Below, one piece after another: positions 20,227 through 26,740 of a stretch of DNA of 26,786 bases. Source of the stretch: an uncultured Gammaproteobacteria bacterium (lineage in GTDB: Bacteria > Patescibacteriota > Microgenomatia > UBA1406 > GWC2-37-13). Where the stretch lies: the NCBI GenBank assembly GCA_964557525.1, contig CAZLAJ010000001.1:1-26786 (forward strand), in the 5' to 3' direction. The notes beneath the pieces are model-generated. The model was given only the letters and a program-made list of their open reading frames with translations, searched no databases and was not told the origin of the DNA. A program made the translations under genes and the position numbers. Positions within the stretch are counted from its first letter, which is position 1, and the number at the start of each line of letters is the position of its first letter.

Positions 20227-20997
20227 TTATTTTGAGTTGAGATTAAACTCTTCCATGAGCTTGCTTAAAAACGGCGAACCGTTTTTCTTAGCCCAGTAGA
20301 GATTGGCCAGAAGAAGGGTATCGAATGTTCCCGCATCTAACCAGTATCCTTCAAGCTCAGCCCAGCTCAGCTTGCCATCTTTGATATAGCAGTTGAGAAG
20401 GTCAGGAACCTCAAGTTGGCCTCGGTCTGAAGGTTTAATATGTGGTATGTAGTCCCATGCCGTACCGTCGAATATATACAATCCAACTGAGGCATAGTTT
20501 GAAGGAGGATCTTTAGGTTTCTCGATAATTTCATCAATCTTAGTGGGGTCTTCGCTGTTAAATCTCGGAACACCAAATCGCTGTGGATCAGGTACTTTTT
20601 TAAGGAATGTCACAGCACCTTCCTTGAAGTTGGCGACAGCGCTTGATATATCTGCGTCTGTTGTATTGTCTCCCAGTATTACCGTTATTGGCTCTCTGTC
20701 TGCATAGTCTTTGGCAACCGCAAGCGCATCGACAATACCACCGTTTGGCTTGTCTTGATAGGCGTATTCGACATGGTCAATACCAAAATCTTTTCCATTC
20801 TTTAATACTGGTATGAAGTGACCGGCGTGAGGTCCGGAAACAACGATTAATATCTCTTTTATTCCTGCTTTTACCAATGTTTGGATGGGGTAGTAGATCA
20901 TTGGCTTGTCATAGACAGGAAGGAGATGTTTATTTGTCGCAAACGTAAGGGGGTAGAGACGAGTCGCAAGTCCGCCAGCAAGGATGACGCCTTTCAT
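20227..20997 (-). CDS. rmlA: Sugar-1-phosphate nucleotidyltransferase, short RmlA/SpsI-like (glucose-1-phosphate thymidylyltransferase family)
   Basis: KGVILAGGLATRLYPLT..NKHLLPVYDKPMIYYP, ILGDN, IEKP, SDRGQLEV, WLDAGTFD. No rmlBCD genes nearby, so the substrate is uncertain. Confidence 0.8.
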   Translation of the reverse strand: MKGVILAGGLATRLYPLTFATNKHLLPVYDKPMIYYPIQTLVKAGIKEILIVVSGPHAGHFIPVLKNGKDFGIDHVEYAYQDKPNGGIVDALAVAKDYADREPITVILGDNTTDADISSAVANFKEGAVTFLKKVPDPQRFGVPRFNSEDPTKIDEIIEKPKDPPSNYASVGLYIFDGTAWDYIPHIKPSDRGQLEVPDLLNCYIKDGKLSWAELEGYWLDAGTFDTLLLANLYWAKKNGSPFLSKLMEEFNLNSK

Positions 20998-21032
20998 ATA
21001 TGTTTAAAAATTGATATGAGCGGTAGTTCCGC

Positions 21033-21317
21033 TTATCTTGGAAAAATAATGAGTTTTAAAAGAAAAATGATGGTAAAACCAATCAGCACATATTCTATCA
21101 CAGTTTTCAGACTCAGGCTCTTATTTTTCTTATGATGCAATATGCCCCATATGATATATATGCCGGTAAATGCAACAAGTACCGCATACTGGAGTGTTGG
21201 CATGCCTTGAAACAGAAACATAGTAATCACAAAGAGACTACCCGCAGTAAGGAGAATGATATAGTCCGTTTTATACTCTCTATACTCTTTTTGTATGTGT
21301 TTGAAAAGGTGGTTCAT
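21033..21317 (-). CDS. Small three-TM hypothetical membrane protein
   Basis: 94 aa with three hydrophobic segments (YIIWGILHH..EY pattern). ATGA-coupled to the CAP gene. Confidence 0.75.
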   Translation of the reverse strand: MNHLFKHIQKEYREYKTDYIILLTAGSLFVITMFLFQGMPTLQYAVLVAFTGIYIIWGILHHKKNKSLSLKTVIEYVLIGFTIIFLLKLIIFPR

Positions 21318-22249
21318 AGTTTCATTGTAATACCTTTAAGCACTGAACCTTGGGCAATAAAGTACATACCAACGAGGATAAACAGGATGAAGAGCAGGTG
21401 TGCGATATTCTTGCCTGTCACCCTGAAGAGCTTCATCCTGAGAGAGAAATAGAGATCCAAGAGAAGTGCAATACCAAGAATAACGAGAAAGATAACATTG
21501 CCGCTATACATATACGGCTGAACTGTTTTTTTTGGTGTTTGTTCTGATGCATACGCCGGCTTGACCGCAAGTCCGGCCAGCTCGTCATGAGCAGGGGTGG
21601 GTGGTGCAGTGGGAGCGATCGTAGGCGCGGTGATATTATGCTCTTTAGCTTGTATATTTGCTGGTATAGTGACTGCGCTTAACGGTTTTCCGAACATTTG
21701 AACAACAAGAGTAGTCTCTTCGCCGTTAATGCTTCCGTTCATCACAGCATATCCTACATCGGAGTATTCTGGTTTGAGGACATTCTCACGATGAGTAGGA
21801 GAGTTCATCCAGGCATTTACAACCCCGTCACTAAACAAAAAGTTTTTTGCCAGATTCTCTCCTGCATACTCGTACTGGTAACCTGAAGAGAGGATAAAGT
21901 CCCAGGGAGTCTCCCCATTGGGTCCATAGTGTGCCCAGTAATCTTTCGCAAACATATCTCGTGCTTTTGCAGCAGCTGCCTGAGACAGTTTTTCATTATA
22001 TGTTAGATCAGTCAATCCATTTTTTTCTCTTTCCTGATTGGTCAGCTGAAACAGCTTCGAGACGGAAATATCAGTTGCGATTCCCAGCACATTAGTTAAT
22101 GGTCCTGAGAAATTCCTAAACACAACTGTTAAAAGCAGGGCAAATGCAAAGTAGAGAGAAAGCATGTCAGTATGCAGTAGCTTTGAGCGAAAATTGTTTG
22201 ATTCATGCGGGATGAAGAAGTGCCGTATCCAATGATGTAGAGATTTCAT
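21314..22249 (-). CDS. Membrane-anchored CAP/SCP domain protein
   Basis: TNQEREKNGL..L..AAAAKARDM..YWAH, GENLAKNF, WMNSPTHRENVL; N-terminal TM, Pro/Thr linker and two C-terminal TMs. Confidence 0.9.
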   Translation of the reverse strand: MKSLHHWIRHFFIPHESNNFRSKLLHTDMLSLYFAFALLLTVVFRNFSGPLTNVLGIATDISVSKLFQLTNQEREKNGLTDLTYNEKLSQAAAAKARDMFAKDYWAHYGPNGETPWDFILSSGYQYEYAGENLAKNFLFSDGVVNAWMNSPTHRENVLKPEYSDVGYAVMNGSINGEETTLVVQMFGKPLSAVTIPANIQAKEHNITAPTIAPTAPPTPAHDELAGLAVKPAYASEQTPKKTVQPYMYSGNVIFLVILGIALLLDLYFSLRMKLFRVTGKNIAHLLFILFILVGMYFIAQGSVLKGITMKL

Positions 22250-22250
22250 T

Positions 22251-22655
22251 CTAGATGAATAAATATCGCTTTATGCGTTTGAAATTATAGTAGATGAATG
22301 TGAGCATGAGACTCATACCAAGCGTATCGATCATCACATCTCTTGGTCTGCCCTCACGAGTCGGTACAAATGTCTGGTGAATTTCATCTGACGCGGCGTA
22401 GAGAATACCGATAAGAAGTGGTATTGTGAACGACTGCATAAATGGTTTTGTCTTTTGTTTTTTGTAGTTAAAGGCGCGAAACAGAAGAAGGTAGAGAAAT
22501 GCATATTCGATAATATGGAGAGATTTAAAGAAAATAAAACTGATTGTATAGGAGTCGGTTACCGGTACACGGGGTCGAGAGGAGAAATAGAATATTACGG
22601 CCATCCAAATAAAAAGGGGGAACCAGTAACGTACAAACACTCCGAGTTTCTTCAT
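22251..22655 (-). CDS. VanZ-like family membrane protein
   Basis: WMAVIFYFSS, KSLHIIEYAFL, YAASDEIHQTFVPTREGRPRDVMID. ATG 22655 is 6 nt after TGgCATAAT. Confidence 0.88.
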   Translation of the reverse strand: MKKLGVFVRYWFPLFIWMAVIFYFSSRPRVPVTDSYTISFIFFKSLHIIEYAFLYLLLFRAFNYKKQKTKPFMQSFTIPLLIGILYAASDEIHQTFVPTREGRPRDVMIDTLGMSLMLTFIYYNFKRIKRYLFI

Positions 22656-22662
22656 AAAACTA

Positions 22663-23949
22663 TTATGCCACACTCTTTATTTTCAACACAAGTGAGAGGA
22701 GACTAATGAGGGAGAAAGAGAATGATGAAAAAGATAGACTTTTGAGAAGCGCTGTTTGCTGTGGGACATTTTTGTCTCCTGTGTCACTGTCGACTGTTTT
22801 TATGTTAGACACTTTTATCTCATTTACATTAACAGTTTCATCTTGTTGATTTTTTTGATGTGATTCATGTATTTCTGACCAGGCGAGCGGGTCTTCAGAT
22901 GGTATTGTTCCATCCTGTTGTCCATCAAACGCATCCTCCTGAGCTGTCGCTCCGAGTATAAGAGCATCAGGTTGTGGGGTCGATTCAACATATGGTTGAG
23001 AAACGGTGGGTGTTGGCGTCTCGTTAGGTATACATTCGCTATTGACTGCATTTTTTGTTGCCGAGGTCTGACAGTAATCATTTCCATTTTTCTGAAGAGA
23101 CCATGACTGTGATTGACTAATACTACTATATGAGGTTTTTGCGACTTCCTTTCCCTCGGGATTGAGAAGCCTGATCACGTCACCATCGTTGTTAAATAAC
23201 GATACAGAAAGGTCAAATGACAGAAAAGAGAGAGGAGGAATAGTTCCTGACAGTTTTTGTGGTGCGCTGCCGCCGTTTTCTCCATCATCCATACTCCAAC
23301 TATCTACGGAAACTTGAAAAATGTTAGGGTTATATAGTTCTACCCATTCTTTTTCATTTGATAGCGGATATGGGTATATCTCGGAGAGGATGAGGTTTGG
23401 GTAGGGGGTCGGAGTTATCGTAGGTGAGGGGGATGGAGTGTTTGTGGGGGTGAGGGTTGGTAGCGTGCGGATACAGCTTACAGTGGGATTTGTGTTAAAA
23501 AAGCCGATGGATGAAGATGTGGCGGTCCATACATCGCCTCCGTCAGGGAGTCGGGAAGAGGAGAGTCCAATTGTCGGAGCCCTTGAGTAACTGTATGAAT
23601 CTTTGAGGCCCGCAGAAGAGGATGTTGGGGGCATGGTCGAGTCAAAGAGGCGAACTGTATCTGCTGATGTTTTGTTTAGGTTTACATCGCCGCTGTATAC
23701 GTAACAGGCGTTTGGTAAAAGTATAGTGTTAGAAGGAATCGTTGCGTATGTGCTCCCGCCGCTATCATCGAGATACCAGTTTGATATATCGGCCTCTTCA
23801 GAGCCGTCGTTAAGAAGCTCGATTTGCTGCATGCCGGTTTCAATAGTCACTTCGTTTATCTTTATCGCTGCGTACGCTCCTGATGAGAGAAGGAAGATAA
23901 ATAGAAGAGATAGAGACAACACAAAAATGAAATGTATTTTTAAGCCCAT
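22663..23949 (-). CDS. Secreted/surface protein with two lamin-tail domains and Pro/Thr linkers
   Basis: Signal peptide; IKINEV..IELLN..DISNWYLDD and ILSEIYP..EWVELYN..VDSWSMDD repeats; PTLTPTNTPSPSPTITPTP linker; hydrophobic C-terminus. Confidence 0.82.
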   Translation of the reverse strand: MGLKIHFIFVLSLSLLFIFLLSSGAYAAIKINEVTIETGMQQIELLNDGSEEADISNWYLDDSGGSTYATIPSNTILLPNACYVYSGDVNLNKTSADTVRLFDSTMPPTSSSAGLKDSYSYSRAPTIGLSSSRLPDGGDVWTATSSSIGFFNTNPTVSCIRTLPTLTPTNTPSPSPTITPTPYPNLILSEIYPYPLSNEKEWVELYNPNIFQVSVDSWSMDDGENGGSAPQKLSGTIPPLSFLSFDLSVSLFNNDGDVIRLLNPEGKEVAKTSYSSISQSQSWSLQKNGNDYCQTSATKNAVNSECIPNETPTPTVSQPYVESTPQPDALILGATAQEDAFDGQQDGTIPSEDPLAWSEIHESHQKNQQDETVNVNEIKVSNIKTVDSDTGDKNVPQQTALLKSLSFSSFSFSLISLLSLVLKIKSVA

Positions 23950-24021: not shown

Positions 24022-24627
24022 ATGAAAAACAAAGTATCATACATTTATTTTGATATCGGAGGAGTGTTTTTTAATTGGAGAAAGACAGTAGCACAGCTTG
24101 CCAATCACTTAGATGTTGATGAGAAGACGTTTTGGAATGTGTTTGTTGAACTTGATGAAGGGGTGTGTGCGGGACGAATGTCAGCTCAGAATTTGTGGAG
24201 AGAGTATAAAAAGAGATATCCGAATGCAGAAGATATAGATGAATTTCTCGTATGGTGGACTGATCGGTTTGAGCCATATCATGAGACACATAGGCTTGTG
24301 CACGATGTAATAAAGAAGTATCGAGTGGGTCTGATTACGAATATCTATCCAGACGCATATCCACGAATGTTACAGAAGGGGCATGTTCCTGATCTTCCGT
24401 ACGAAGTCGTGGTTGAGTCATGCAAAGTGGGCCCAAATAAACCAGATGATAAGATATTTATTCATGCTGAAGAACAAGCAAATGTTCCCCCTACTGAAAT
24501 ATTTTTCATAGATGATTCTGAAAGGAATATAACTGCGGCTAATGCCAGAGGCTGGCAGGGATTTCTCTTTAATGAAGATGATCCGGCTGCTGCAGCGAAA
24601 GAAATTCGAAGATTATTGGACGTGTAA
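24022..24627 (+). CDS. HAD-superfamily hydrolase (YihX-like phosphatase)
   Basis: Motif I FDIGGV, motif II LITN, motif III KPD, motif IV FIDDSERNITAA..GW. Confidence 0.9.
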   Translation: MKNKVSYIYFDIGGVFFNWRKTVAQLANHLDVDEKTFWNVFVELDEGVCAGRMSAQNLWREYKKRYPNAEDIDEFLVWWTDRFEPYHETHRLVHDVIKKYRVGLITNIYPDAYPRMLQKGHVPDLPYEVVVESCKVGPNKPDDKIFIHAEEQANVPPTEIFFIDDSERNITAANARGWQGFLFNEDDPAAAAKEIRRLLDV

Positions 24628-25767
24628 GTAGTAGCTGATTACTCCATTCCCGTGGTCGATGTATTTAATATTAATTGTCGCTCCGCTACAGGCCTGACTT
24701 GATGAGTAGAGAGTACCGTCTGCTGGTGCGCGGATTACTTCACTGCCTGAGCTCCACATGTCTATACCGGTATGGATTCCTCCGCTATAGCTGTATCTCC
24801 AAGACCATGGAGTCTGACCGAAATGTTGCTCGACTATTACCGGGTCGGTAAGCGGCCAGTCCCAGCTGCCACCCCCTATTGTATCTGTTCCACCAGTCTG
24901 ATGGTCGGTAAGCGTTTTGGAAGAGAGGTAGTTTGCTGGATCTACCCAAGAATTATTAAGTCGTACCTCAAAATGAAGGTGCGCTCCGGTTGAGCAATAG
25001 GGGGCTCCAGAGTTCCCCACAAGCGCAATTGGTTCACCTTTCTTAACAGCACCAACTTTACTACCTGTCAATACCGCCTTCTCGACAGCATTGTATTCTG
25101 CTAACGCTTGAGAAAGAAGCTGTTGATACTTTTTTTCATCATTCTGGGTGTCTGCAAGAAGCAGCTGTTTCTTGCTTTTTTGATCATCAAGCGCAACTTT
25201 CTGCGATTTAAGGGTATCCTCTAGATTTGCCAGTTCAACTTTCTTTTTTTCCCGTAGGGTTTTTTGTTCTTCGAAGTTTAGCTTCGTGGTTTGTACCTGA
25301 ACAAGCAGTTTCTGGTTGTTTTCCTGAGTCGTTTTTGCATACTTCATCTCATTTATCATTTCCGCTGCATTTGCAGTATCAAAGAGAATATCGAAGAAGG
25401 AATAGGCCCTTTTCTTGTAGCCGTCGACTACCCTCCTCAGGAGTAGTTTTGAGAGATAATCCAGAGATTCGTCTAGTCCGTCGATCTTTGCGTCTAAAAG
25501 CTCTATCTCTTTTTGTGTTGAAATGATCTTTTTTTCCGTTTCTTCAATGCGGTAAGCAGTAAGAGAGATCTGAGTATCCATGTACTGAATCTGGGAAGAG
25601 AGAGAGTTTTTCTGACCTCTCAGTTCAGTAAGCTTCTGTTCATACTCTTTAATTCTGTTTGAGAGGTCGCTTTGCGTTTGGTTGGTGTTTTGCGAGTAGG
25701 TGATGGGAGCAAGCGTAATGAATGTGAAGAAAAGGAGGAATACAATAGTAATTTTTTTAGAGGACAT
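24613..25767 (-). CDS. Secreted coiled-coil protein (PcsB/EnvC/CwlO-like N-terminus) with a circularly permuted M23 metallopeptidase domain
   Basis: Signal peptide, ~200-aa heptad coiled coil, then STGAHLHFEV BEFORE HTGID. ATG 25767 is 7 nt after TATAAT. Confidence 0.88.
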   Translation of the reverse strand: MSSKKITIVFLLFFTFITLAPITYSQNTNQTQSDLSNRIKEYEQKLTELRGQKNSLSSQIQYMDTQISLTAYRIEETEKKIISTQKEIELLDAKIDGLDESLDYLSKLLLRRVVDGYKKRAYSFFDILFDTANAAEMINEMKYAKTTQENNQKLLVQVQTTKLNFEEQKTLREKKKVELANLEDTLKSQKVALDDQKSKKQLLLADTQNDEKKYQQLLSQALAEYNAVEKAVLTGSKVGAVKKGEPIALVGNSGAPYCSTGAHLHFEVRLNNSWVDPANYLSSKTLTDHQTGGTDTIGGGSWDWPLTDPVIVEQHFGQTPWSWRYSYSGGIHTGIDMWSSGSEVIRAPADGTLYSSSQACSGATINIKYIDHGNGVISYYLHVQ

Positions 25768-25774
25768 GTGATTC

Positions 25775-25804
25775 ATTATAAGCAGATCTGATGCGATTTT
25801 TCAA
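25775..25804 (-). promoter_or_regulatory. Sigma70 promoter (leaderless) for the M23 gene
   Basis: TTGAAA (25804-25799), 18 nt, TATAAT (25780-25775), then 7 nt to ATG. Confidence 0.6.
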
Positions 25805-25846: not shown

Positions 25847-26740
25847 TTATGCATGATACTTTTCAGTTGCAATGTAGCTTGCGATAAGCGCAATTCCCAG
25901 TCCAAACAGTGAGGCAAATCCAAAACTGAGTGCCATGAATGTTGCATTAAGCGGCCAGACCATAATTGATGTACTACCCACAGTAATTATGAGATCCTGC
26001 ACGCCTCGAAGATATGAGTTGAGAAACGGATTTATGTACAGGAGGAGTCCAAGGATGATTCCGTATGCTGATAATACCGCCGTGAGTCCAAAGAGAAATG
26101 CTTCACTTAAGAATGGCCGTTTGATATAGAACCCACCTGCACCCAAAAGCCGTAAGAGCTCAATTTCATCTCTTTTTATTGCTATTTTAAAGAGGAATGT
26201 TGTCGTGAGAACAATGATCGACATCAGGATGAGGAAGCTAAAGAAAATGATAGTGGTACGCCGCAAGATAGAGGTAAGAGTAAGGAGTCTATCGACGATC
26301 TGCTGTTGAAAGTTCACCTCATCAACACCGGATTTTGTCTTGAGAAATGCCGCAATTTCCGGAAGATATTCAGGTTTTTTCGCATAGATTTCGATAGATG
26401 GAGGAAGAATATCCGCAGATACCATCTCGAGAAGGAGTGGATTATCTTTATTTAGCTGTTTATATACGGTATACGCCTCTGCTTTCGAAACATACTTAAC
26501 ATCAAGTACTTTTCCCGAGTTAACAAGTTCTTCTCTGATTTTGAGAATCTCGCCTTCTGGAGCTTTTGCTTGGAAGTAGGCGGTTACCTGAGGTCTTGTT
26601 TCAACATACCCTAAAAGTCCATATAAGAAAGAGAGGGTAATAAAGAGGACAAGGGACAAAAATACGGTAAAAAATAGTACTAAAAAGGCGGCTAAAGACT
26701 GGTATGGTGTGCGTCTTATTGATATGAGTATGTCTTTCAT
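25847..26740 (-). CDS. ftsX: Cell division permease-like protein FtsX
   Basis: TM1, extracellular loop with VKYVSKAEA..NPLL..LPPSIEI..GVDEV, three further TMs, RDEIELLRLLGAGGFYIKRPFLSEA. SD AAGGAGG upstream. Confidence 0.92.
   Translation of the reverse strand: MKDILISIRRTPYQSLAAFLVLFFTVFLSLVLFITLSFLYGLLGYVETRPQVTAYFQAKAPEGEILKIREELVNSGKVLDVKYVSKAEAYTVYKQLNKDNPLLLEMVSADILPPSIEIYAKKPEYLPEIAAFLKTKSGVDEVNFQQQIVDRLLTLTSILRRTTIIFFSFLILMSIIVLTTTFLFKIAIKRDEIELLRLLGAGGFYIKRPFLSEAFLFGLTAVLSAYGIILGLLLYINPFLNSYLRGVQDLIITVGSTSIMVWPLNATFMALSFGFASLFGLGIALIASYIATEKYHA

Follow-up and report, generated by a model that had tools for sequence, protein, structure and literature searches.

Few cell-wall hydrolases have been studied as much as the peptidases of the M23/LytM family (lysostaphin, LytM, EnvC), which also serve as enzybiotic scaffolds. 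In Gram-positive and mycobacterial cells, FtsEX controls coiled-coil proteins that are themselves hydrolases, namely PcsB, with a CHAP domain, and CwlO and RipC, with NlpC/P60 domains. The LytM domain of EnvC, by comparison, has the canonical order but is degenerate, lacks the Zn ligands, and is gated by a restraining-arm helix, and EnvC activates amidases. As the FtsEX-bound activator of murein hydrolases, EnvC is represented in the PDB by 6tpi, 8tzl, and 8hd0 (E. coli, V. cholerae, P. aeruginosa). To our knowledge, all solved and reviewed M23 peptidases have the canonical order. Among the coiled-coil LytM partners of FtsEX, EnvC is known best, and its interface lies at the tip of the coiled-coil hairpin, at residues 114-160 (PMC11627006). 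Among cell-wall peptidases, natural circular permutation has a precedent in NlpC/P60 families (YaeF/poxvirus G6R, LRAT-like; PMC6403190), although their fold and chemistry (papain-like Cys peptidase) are unrelated to those of M23.

The window analyzed here, a stretch of 26,786 nucleotides, encodes a protein that resembles EnvC, a partner of the FtsX extracellular domain (ECD), in combining a coiled-coil hairpin with an M23/LytM-fold domain, but that retains all catalytic residues and, as far as has been shown, lacks a restraining arm. As in PcsB, CwlO, and RipC, the coiled-coil protein itself would be the hydrolase, although with a Zn-dependent M23 domain where those proteins carry a cysteine peptidase. 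The two parts of this M23 domain appear in swapped order. No permuted M23 was described in the literature that we searched on M23/LytM, EnvC, lysostaphin, FtsEX, and CPR bacteria, recent reviews included, and the string “permut” is absent from the M23 family review of 2022 (PMC9662197); a preliminary description of this DNA, which had likewise named no characterized example, thus agrees with these searches. In our view, the permuted M23 protein is a real topological variant, previously unreported, of an enzyme and a regulatory module that are both known.

Gene and protein architecture

Table 1. Coordinates of the permuted M23 gene, its parts, and the neighboring ftsX gene within the window.
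Feature	Coordinates	Strand	Remarks
ORF, coiled coil plus circularly permuted M23 peptidase	24613..25776	-	387 aa; 384 aa if the start is M4
Stop codon of this ORF	24613-24615	-	
Second ATG (M4)	25765-25767	-	start common to all aligned homologues
N-terminal basic and hydrophobic segment, residues 1-28	25693..25776	-	predicted signal peptide or membrane anchor
Coiled-coil domain, residues 35-237	25066..25674	-	AlphaFold model and Foldseek matches
Hairpin tip, residues 109-162	25291..25452	-	predicted FtsX-binding, from complex prediction
First half of permuted domain, residues 238-286	24919..25065	-	Pfam profile positions 61-96
Cys261 codon	24994-24996	-	first half
HxH (HLH)	24973-24981	-	H266 catalytic, H268 Zn ligand; roles by M23 motif
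Linker, residues 287-302, old C-terminus to old N-terminus	24871..24918	-	beta-hairpin in model
Second half of permuted domain, residues 303-387	24616..24870	-	Pfam profile positions 2-54; begins WPL
HTGID	24760-24774	-	H335 and D339 Zn ligands; roles by M23 motif
Cys363 codon	24688-24690	-	second half
Catalytic H385	24622-24624	-	
Candidate promoter TTGAAA-18-TATAAT	25775..25804	-	11/12, consensus match only
ftsX, permease-like division protein	25847..26740	-	297 aa; Pfam FtsX_ECD 3.9e-16, FtsX 1.8e-08

The features of the gene are collected in Table 1. The -10 box of the candidate promoter overlaps the first ATG of the open reading frame. In the N-terminal segment, the model places a helix at residues 7-21, at a position that is conserved in the homologue alignment (A1), and reading of the sequence of residues 1-28 revealed no lipobox Cys. 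AlphaFold predicts the coiled coil as a long antiparallel hairpin (helices 59-121 and 137-210) with flanking helices at 35-53 and 214-237, and the model is consistent with an exported protein in which such a coiled coil precedes a C-terminal wall-active domain. Foldseek matched the coiled coil to EnvC in FtsEX (8tzl_E, 6tpi_A), RipC (8idc_E), the RipA N-domain (6ewy), and PcsB (4cgk), EnvC 8tzl_E being the best full-length fold match (E 2e-4). The NCBIfam EnvC equivalog NF008644 matched the coiled coil only, with 41.5 bits against a cut-off of 270. The CC_PcsB profile (PF24568) was not reported for the protein itself at E values up to 1, and it was found in relatives (e.g., P0109, 28.3 bits with a cut-off of 27; L107, 37.9 bits).

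Order and conservation of the M23 halves

The first half of the domain corresponds to the canonical C-terminal third of M23 and the second half to its canonical N-terminal two-thirds. On the protein, Pfam PF01551 scored 55.9 bits (cut-off 28.7), split into two stretches, and a whole-genome HMM search placed profile positions 61-96 at 24937-25053 and 2-54 at 24613-24777, i.e., as two partial matches reversed on the minus strand, just as the preliminary description had expected of a HMMER search with Peptidase_M23. A phmmer alignment to PDB 3slu_A gave the same picture, with query residues 330-386 falling on chain residues 241-295 and query residues 241-283 on 302-341. When the halves were re-ordered in silico, they formed one collinear alignment of 33.0 bits to the canonical M23 protein of the same genome (contig C38), against which the native order broke up into a pair of reversed segments (17.1 and 3.0 bits).

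The H(x)nD and HxH motifs, the His of the YxH strand, and the profile score all mark the domain as M23, but the canonical order, with H(x)nD ahead of HxH in one collinear match, is not found. H(x)3D, YxH, and HxH are shared with LytM, lysostaphin, EnpA, Csd3, and ShyA (PF01551; MEROPS M23B). HLH, HTGID, and the C-terminal YLHVQ, which ends the protein 2 residues past H385, all lie where they had previously been placed. None of H266, H268, H335, D339, and H385 varies among 70 diverse permuted domains (alignment A2), and H335, D339, H266, and H268 are invariant in alignment A1 as well. The reversed Pfam halves, the collinearity gained by re-ordering, and the invariant residues, together with the compact domain predicted below, confirm at the level of sequence what had been proposed: a real circular permutation of an intact M23 domain with its full catalytic set.

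Predicted structure of the permuted domain

The domain modeled on its own gave a single compact AlphaFold domain (pLDDT 95.5, pTM 0.91), and ESM Atlas models of two related clusters matched it with TM 0.96 (1.2 Å over 160 residues) and TM 0.85. Two predictors hence return one compact domain, contrary to the two separate incomplete domains that would have spoken against the permutation. In VIA-align searches against the PDB, 18 of the top 20 matches were M23/LytM domains, aligned on the larger half with low Z-scores of 3.2-4.8; this half superposes on the N-terminal ~80 residues of the 18 solved domains with an rmsd of 2.5-3.9 Å. Foldseek with the domain model against the PDB returned no M23 and nothing at E ≤ 0.001, which is expected, although not proof of anything, because a sequential alignment is limited on a permutant. 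We considered a new fold on the strength of this empty result and rejected it, as VIA-align, the sequence profiles, and the relatives in AFDB and the Atlas indicate M23. For the whole-domain match in 3D and for the geometry of the Zn site, the support comes from the confidence of the predictors, from the invariant residues, and from Cys covariation.

This covariation links the two halves. Cys pairs across them occur as C261 and C363 in 46 of the 70 diverse domains and, in shifted form, as C260 and C366 in 12, and the Cys count is even in 67 of the 70. The same genome encodes a DsbB-family protein, and in two relatives DsbB lies directly 3′ of the permuted M23 gene. From these sequence patterns, a family-specific C261-C363 disulfide probably staples both halves together.

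Distribution and origin

We found 1,642 homologues of the protein, and the permuted order is present in 89 of the 150 best representatives (50% identity). The layout is common to hundreds of Patescibacteria/CPR bacteria, which are ultra-small, and a permuted M23 occurs in at least ~66 of 401 genomes. This count is a lower bound because some partial matches to profile positions 65-157 are divergent permuted proteins; reading all such matches as canonical M23 proved wrong for some, with G183 and G067 being divergent permuted forms. The 401 genomes include an unpublished one (G154), on which no individual claim depends. Giant proteins of 1,256 to 2,492 aa likewise terminate in the permuted domain.

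The 91 permuted domains all lie to the same side of one branch in the tree (SH-aLRT 86, not starred), and the best tree thus favors, but does not prove, a single origin of the permuted form. The linker spans only ~6 residues in basal family members. For a short-linker, Cys-less permuted type (P0215, P0258, P0270), we had considered an independent origin. A first tree with fewer relatives had put P0215 among canonical sequences; with relatives added, this type groups with the permuted domains, and we discarded that idea. Tandem M23 proteins of order NCNC exist (e.g., P0178, P0185, P0225), and we hypothesize that a duplication followed by truncation may have led to the permutation. The tandem proteins were rejected as direct intermediates, since the trees do not group them next to the permuted clade.

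The ftsEX neighborhood

The permuted M23 gene is encoded on the strand of ftsX and is separated from it by 70 nt. The ftsX product, whose extracellular domain spans approximately residues 44-158, matched NCBIfam FtsX models at 1e-27 to 7e-38, all under the equivalog cut-offs. Upstream of ftsX, 46 nt remain before the contig end, and ftsE sits cut at the end of another contig (C72); the earlier placement downstream of ftsEX therefore holds within the window for ftsX but not for ftsE. In relatives, ftsE and ftsX lie directly upstream of the gene at 67 of 76 informative GTDB loci, and the gene is apart from ftsEX in the other 9; the same arrangement is seen on long contigs, with ftsE-ftsX upstream. 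In one of the genomes with a divergent permuted form (G067), a CHAP protein fills the ftsEX slot and the permuted gene is located elsewhere.

Other occupants of the slot help to place the permuted protein. In other CPR families, the same coiled coil carries a canonical M23, a CHAP, or a C39-like domain, and the CHAP and C39-like versions of sister CPR lineages include one from the same GTDB family as this genome (G380). Downstream of ftsX there are also coiled-coil M23 proteins that have the canonical order and the complete catalytic residues, in other CPR families (e.g., L117, L123) and on a metagenome contig (P0232); as far as we found, they are uncharacterized. Judged by these sequences, the permuted form is not alone in offering FtsEX a catalytically intact M23 partner. 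The canonical proteins share with it the slot, the signal peptide, the coiled coil, the C-terminal M23 domain, and a length of ~380-410 aa. Their Pfam match, however, covers positions 2-96 in one stretch, whereas the permuted protein shows 61-96 followed by 2-54, joins its coiled coil to a different strand, ends its chain at the catalytic His strand, and has the family-specific Cys pair.

A complex prediction with two FtsX ECDs and the coiled coil placed the interface at residues 109-123 and 158-162, at the hairpin tip, resembling the EnvC interface. Its ipSAE was 0.38 (best of three controls, 0.00), on a scale whose mark 58 of 80 solved complexes attain, as do 2 of 110 mismatched pairs; as passing scores of ≤0.60 comprise only 7 of the 80 solved complexes and both passing mismatches, this is weak support, and the predictor may owe the score to having learned the solved complexes of FtsX with EnvC, RipC, and PcsB. 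The linkage to FtsEX asserted in the preliminary description is accordingly backed by synteny, by the coiled-coil fold matches to EnvC, RipC, RipA, and PcsB, and weakly by the complex prediction.

Discussion

We consider it likely that the protein combines a coiled-coil partner of FtsEX with an active, permuted, Zn-dependent M23 endopeptidase. The host would be a Microgenomates-type (Roizmanbacteria-like) Patescibacterium, and the gene product the extracytoplasmic partner of its FtsEX ABC complex. After export, the EnvC/PcsB-type antiparallel coiled coil would most likely dock by its hairpin tip on two FtsX ECDs, and ATP-driven activation may then act on the Zn-dependent M23 endopeptidase at its far end, which would cut peptidoglycan peptides at the septum. 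In this enzyme, the old C-terminus (...DPxxYL) would have been joined through the linker to the old N-terminus (WPL...), and the chain broken within the loop that follows the catalytic YxH strand, so that the last coiled-coil helix leads directly into what is canonically the next strand after the catalytic His. The halves would fold as one domain with the usual active site, H335, D339, and H268 binding Zn and H385 and H266 being catalytic.

Three other explanations can be weighed against this reading. An artefact, whether misassembly, frameshift, or a tandem-M23 remnant with two non-functional half-domains, is extremely improbable: a truncated NCNC tandem such as those noted above would look alike, but the swapped order and the stop right after YxHxQ recur in more than 1,600 proteins from independent assemblies, which also contradicts the misassembly, or the canonical order in homologues, that had been named as grounds for refutation. 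The single compact domain from two predictors and the Cys pairs that covary across the halves likewise oppose an artefact, and decay is at odds with the purifying conservation seen at every catalytic residue. The protein could instead be a non-catalytic regulator of the LytM type, like EnvC, NlpD, or DipM, that activates another hydrolase; EnvC is both the best-known coiled-coil LytM partner of FtsEX (PMC11627006) and the top full-length fold match. EnvC-type factors have lost their Zn ligands, however, whereas the five catalytic residues are invariant in all 70 diverse members, and the EnvC equivalog score of 41.5 bits against 270 comes from the coiled coil only, which makes a regulator of this type quite unlikely.

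The last alternative accepts an active permuted M23 but separates it from FtsEX, for example as a general autolysin or as a lysin against host or neighbor cells, and attributes the adjacency to ftsX to operon history. The 9 of 76 relatives with the gene away from ftsEX, the CHAP protein in the slot of G067, the giant proteins that end in the permuted domain, and the weak complex score (ipSAE 0.38) would all fit such an enzyme. Against them stand the distance of 70 nt from the co-oriented ftsX, the ftsE-ftsX-gene order kept in 67 of 76 relatives, a coiled coil of FtsX-binding type whose predicted interface lies at the hairpin tip as in EnvC 114-160, and the slot itself, whose occupant in other CPR families is in every case a coiled-coil hydrolase. 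We judge an FtsEX-independent enzyme unlikely.

For an FtsEX-controlled permuted hydrolase, the new attachment point of the coiled coil may entail a different activation mechanism. The last coiled-coil helix joins the strand beside the catalytic His strand directly, with neither a linker nor a restraining arm, and the free C-terminus lies 2 residues from H385. With such a connection, compression of the coiled coil, driven by FtsEX, might gate the active site directly. That the permutation is not neutral but rewires regulation in this direct manner, and has spread by selection for such coupling, is possible but rather doubtful. If true, it would be a mode of hydrolase control unlike those of EnvC, PcsB, and RipC, and the single origin and spread across several CPR classes, beside canonical forms in the same slot, would reflect selection.

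As a conserved natural permutant, the protein indicates that the M23 fold tolerates a new chain topology and offers a ready-made alternative scaffold. The permutation also explains why domain tools return only fragmentary M23 matches in these genomes and why Foldseek, a sequential structure search, misses the fold entirely against the PDB. For a large part of the Patescibacteria, the family would define the hydrolase that FtsEX controls, with one coiled-coil adaptor carrying interchangeable catalytic cassettes: permuted M23, canonical M23, CHAP, or C39-like. Since permuted and canonical forms occupy the same operon slot, they provide a natural experiment in which the putative transmission of a signal from FtsEX to a catalytic domain can be compared.

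An M23 domain with its halves swapped

P0001, a coiled-coil protein with an M23 peptidase domain encoded downstream of ftsX, matched the Pfam Peptidase_M23 profile with 55.9 bits (cut-off 28.7) in two stretches, of which the best covers residues 242-280 and profile positions 61-96. When the whole genome was searched in six frames with the HMM, profile positions 61-96 fell at 24937-25053 and positions 2-54 at 24613-24777. The third of the domain that is canonically C-terminal thus stands ahead of the two-thirds that are canonically N-terminal, giving the reversed partial matches that the preliminary description had expected, and its positions for the HxH and HTGID motifs proved exact. In phmmer searches of PDB sequences, the alignments to 3slu_A, 6muk_A and 5j1l_A cross over in the same way. 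When the two halves were swapped back by script, for analysis only, they gave one collinear alignment (33.0 bits, target residues 256-356) to the canonical M23 protein on contig C38 of the same genome, whereas the native order split the alignment into two segments (17.1 and 3.0 bits) in reversed order. At the old junction, YLHVQ/GSKVG..AVKKGE of P0001 aligned with canonical YGHMQRLDVNPGDAVSQGQ, and thus the chain was opened in the loop after the YxH catalytic strand. The canonical-order protein (357-aa frame, C38:6581-6868, minus strand; locus L001) has HxxxD, YGH and HLH intact, and a second M23 fragment lies at a contig end (C44:8560-8706; L002), so that the permuted enzyme is not the sole M23 of this genome.

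Features of the permuted M23 gene, its product and its surroundings
Feature	Position	Strand	Remark
ftsX	25847-26740	-	upstream of permuted M23 gene
P0001 ORF, 387 aa	24613-25776	-	starts 70 nt past ftsX
Promoter-like site TTGAAA-18-TATAAT	25775-25804	-	11/12 to consensus, near ORF start
Second ATG, M4	25765-25767	-	start common to all homologues aligned
P0001 N-terminus	residues 1-28		basic and hydrophobic
P0001 predicted helix	residues 35-237		~200 residues
P0001 first M23 block	HxH at 24973-24981	-	VKKGEPIALVGNSG..CSTGAHLHFEV..VDPANYL, then Gly/Thr-rich linker
P0001 second M23 block	HTGID at 24760-24774	-	WDWPL...HTGID...IDHGNGVISYYLHVQ, then stop
HAD-family phosphatase gene	24022-24627	+	convergent; 15-nt tail-to-tail overlap with M23 gene 3' end (24613-24627)
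Conserved downstream cluster	20227-23949	-	conserved with relatives
Lamin-tail-domain (LTD) surface protein	22663-23949	-	
VanZ	22251-22673	-	
CAP/YkwD-domain protein	21314-22249	-	weak match to divisome-associated lipoprotein DalA model NF052539
Nucleotidyl transferase	in 20227-23949	-	

The -10 box of the promoter-like site overlaps the first ATG of the ORF, and the true start is probably M4; the transcript is possibly leaderless or has a very short leader, separate from or additional to read-through from ftsEX. The HAD gene looks like an insertion, because in relatives (L005) the LTD gene directly follows the M23 gene. Together with ftsEX, the downstream cluster may form a wider envelope or division gene neighbourhood.

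Conservation of the permuted order and its catalytic residues

The swapped order could in principle be an artefact or a decaying remnant, a reading that is ruled out by the number of homologues, their common C-terminus and their invariant catalytic residues. A word-index search found 1,642 homologues of P0001, the best 120 of which are 49-97% identical and about 365-423 aa long, all with PF01551. In an alignment of 36 of these homologues, all terminate in ...LH[VI]Q (3 with one residue more), with H266, H268, H335, D339, H385, C261 and C363 invariant. An exhaustive phmmer search with the P0001 domain against 1.84 billion cluster representatives (E <= 0.001) returned 9,059 matches; half-domain HMMs typed the best 150 as 89 permuted (C-half then N-half), 27 canonical and 7 tandem (NCNC), contrary to a misassembly among canonical homologues. 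Across 70 diverse permuted domains (to 30% identity), the invariant columns (H266, H268, P308, Q317, G320, H335, D339, G354 and H385) include the full M23 complement of three Zn ligands and two catalytic histidines, as defined in the family review (PMC9662197), which extends to the whole set the retention of these residues first noticed in P0001.

One closed domain in the predicted structures

An AlphaFold2 model of the domain alone (residues 228-387, 70-row alignment) had a mean pLDDT of 95.5, a pTM of 0.91 and zero segments below pLDDT 50. ESM Atlas models from two related clusters (Woesebacteria and Roizmanbacteria) superposed on it with TM 0.96 (1.2 A over 160 residues) and TM 0.85, and in the AlphaFold DB only seven fold clusters, named Peptidase M23 or nameless, matched at E <= 1.4e-3, each over query residues 3-160. 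Against solved structures, Foldseek gave zero M23 matches. VIA-align, which is independent of Foldseek, placed M23/LytM domains in 18 of its 20 top rows (EnvC LytM 4bh5, StM23 9gy1, SpoIIQ, DipM, Csd3, EnpA, lysostaphin, LECT2 and LytM), covering only model residues ~74-160, the larger half, at an rmsd of 2.5-3.9 A and with Z of 3.2-4.8, by themselves under the reliability range of the tool. This combination of a Foldseek miss with half-only matches is what one expects when a circular permutant is aligned sequentially. The AlphaFold check thus yielded the compact single domain proposed earlier, with solved M23 structures matched over the larger half only, and the models suggest that the halves form one closed M23 domain.

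Covariation of cysteines likewise suggests that the halves touch. C261, in the first-half loop preceding HxH, and C363, in a hairpin of the second half, occur together in 46 of the 70 permuted domains, and a shifted pair (C260 and C366) occurs in 12, with both pairs in 2; C261 stands alone in only 3, and the number of cysteines is even in 67. A disulfide would staple the two halves together. The source genome encodes a DsbB-family protein (C70:2549-2926; 53.4 bits, cut-off 22.1), and in two relatives the gene immediately after the permuted M23 encodes DsbB (L014 5167-5583, L017 5137-5550), which fits an extracytoplasmic disulfide in this domain. In the basal members P0187, P0255, P0215 and P0258, the stretch from ...YL to WP... 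is spanned by only ~6 residues, so that the old termini must be near neighbours, a prerequisite for a viable permutation; the 16-residue linker of P0001, predicted as a beta-hairpin, is a later insertion.

Linkage to FtsEX

Only 46 nt separate ftsX from the upstream end of the window, and ftsE of the source genome is found on contig C72 (4836-5441), truncated at residue 202 by the contig end: the ftsE-ftsX-M23 operon is broken by the assembly. Long contigs of relatives carry prfB, a small ORF, ftsE, ftsX and the permuted M23 gene in order. Among 80 GTDB loci, ftsE-ftsX lies directly upstream on the same strand in 67, while 4 are without upstream flank and 9 without upstream ftsEX; in the 4 of these 9 that were inspected, the M23 gene is flanked by an amine-oxidase-like gene on one side and by dnaA or dsbB on the other. 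The full-length model of P0001 (pLDDT 80.8) pairs helices 59-121 and 137-210 in a long antiparallel hairpin, and its best Foldseek PDB match was EnvC in the V. cholerae FtsEX complex (8tzl_E, E 2e-4), with further matches to the RipA N-domain (6ewy), EnvC-FtsX (6tpi_A), RipC in FtsEX (8idc_E) and PcsB (4cgk). Gene order and fold thus both uphold the proposed linkage to FtsEX.

A complex prediction of two FtsX ECDs (residues 44-158) with the coiled coil (residues 30-240) gave more tentative results. It passed a mark that 58 of 80 solved complexes and 2 of 110 mismatched pairs pass, but with an ipSAE of 0.38 (best of three controls, 0.00) it lends weak support: among passes, values <= 0.60 occurred in only 7 of the 80 solved complexes but in both mismatches, and the pass may reflect memory of similar solved complexes. 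The confident predicted interface joins FtsX 55, 89-113 and 141-143 to coiled-coil residues 109-123 and 158-162, the hairpin tip, matching the FtsX-binding segment 114-160 of EnvC (PMC11627006).

Origin and spread of the permuted form

In an unrooted tree (134 columns) with permuted domains re-ordered to canonical, all 91 permuted domains fell on one side of a branch and 37 canonical and tandem domains on the other, with an SH-aLRT of 86, which is not strong. A single origin of the permutation is the best reading of this tree, though not a proven one. Tandem M23 proteins were not sisters of the permuted domains, and a route by duplication and then truncation is therefore a mere hypothesis.

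In a phylum-wide sample of 401 genomes, one match covered the two halves in permuted order in at least ~66, a lower bound counted among the matches listed, where divergent members gave half-length matches. Records of relatives are titled Roizmanbacteria, Woesebacteria, Gottesmanbacteria, Daviesbacteria, Microgenomates, WWE3, Paceibacterota and 'Patescibacteria group'. Many of the L008-L087 records (TPA assemblies), which encode close homologues, bear the title 'uncultured Gammaproteobacteria bacterium'; the homologues share 44-65% identity with P0001, a protein of Patescibacteria type, and most keep the ftsE-ftsX-gene order, and these labels look like placeholders or errors.

The gene after ftsX, surveyed in 28 genomes from 28 GTDB families, encodes permuted M23 in 7 (L099, L102, L103, L104, L106, L107, L109), canonical coiled-coil M23 with intact catalytic residues in 4 (L105, L116, L117, L123), coiled-coil CHAP in 2 (L110, L122), a coiled-coil Peptidase_C39_2-like protein in 2 (L100, L120) and nothing assignable in the remaining families. 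Even the GTDB family of the source genome is mixed, with permuted M23 in genome G183 and a C39-like domain in G380. On a metagenome contig, too, the gene after ftsX encodes a canonical CC_PcsB protein with intact M23 (P0232). Having a catalytically intact M23 as FtsEX partner is therefore shared with canonical forms, and what sets the permuted form apart is its topology.

Other arrangements were also seen. In sister genomes, coiled-coil proteins after ftsX with a Peptidase_C39_2-like cysteine-peptidase domain, not M23, occur at L089 2119-3312 (G380), L090, L091 and L120. A short-linker, Cys-less permuted type (P0215, P0258, P0270) lies after ftsEX and before a CtpA-type S41 protease (L094 6618-7802; L095 2803-4047), a neighbour that hints at proteolytic control of the hydrolase; such control is known elsewhere for CtpA and NlpD/MepM-type substrates. 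Giant proteins, too, carry permuted M23 as their C-terminal or near-terminal domain (P0150, 1,256 aa; P0204, 2,174 aa; P0166/P0274, 894 and 2,492 aa), one of them annotated as endonuclease/exonuclease/phosphatase family, and the domain is thus mobile beyond the FtsEX partner.

Proposed function and novelty

By analogy, P0001 is most likely exported and docked on FtsX through its coiled coil, where the permuted domain would cut the peptides of septal peptidoglycan, governed by the ATPase cycle of FtsE. Such control is established for PcsB, CwlO and RipC and, by way of the amidases, for EnvC (PMC11627006).

We found no circular permutation of M23 in the literature searched on M23, LytM, EnvC, lysostaphin, FtsEX and CPR: a review of wall hydrolases mentions permutation for NlpC/P60 only (PMC6403190), and 'permut' is absent from the 2022 M23 review (PMC9662197) and the 2024 FtsEX review (PMC11627006), whose partner list comprises only EnvC, PcsB, CwlO, RipC and RipA and is without a C39_2-like partner. 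Neither the curated NCBIfam and Pfam models nor, by phmmer, the PDB chains included the permuted arrangement, in agreement with the earlier statement that no characterised example was known.

The permutation joins the last coiled-coil helix (214-237) directly to strand 239-244, without a linker, and places the C-terminus two residues past the catalytic H385. This may alter the way in which catalysis responds to the signal, and the new activation mechanism suggested earlier is a plausible conjecture. The permuted M23 domain, apparently undescribed, is a real, conserved topological variant of a well-known enzyme in a well-known regulatory module.
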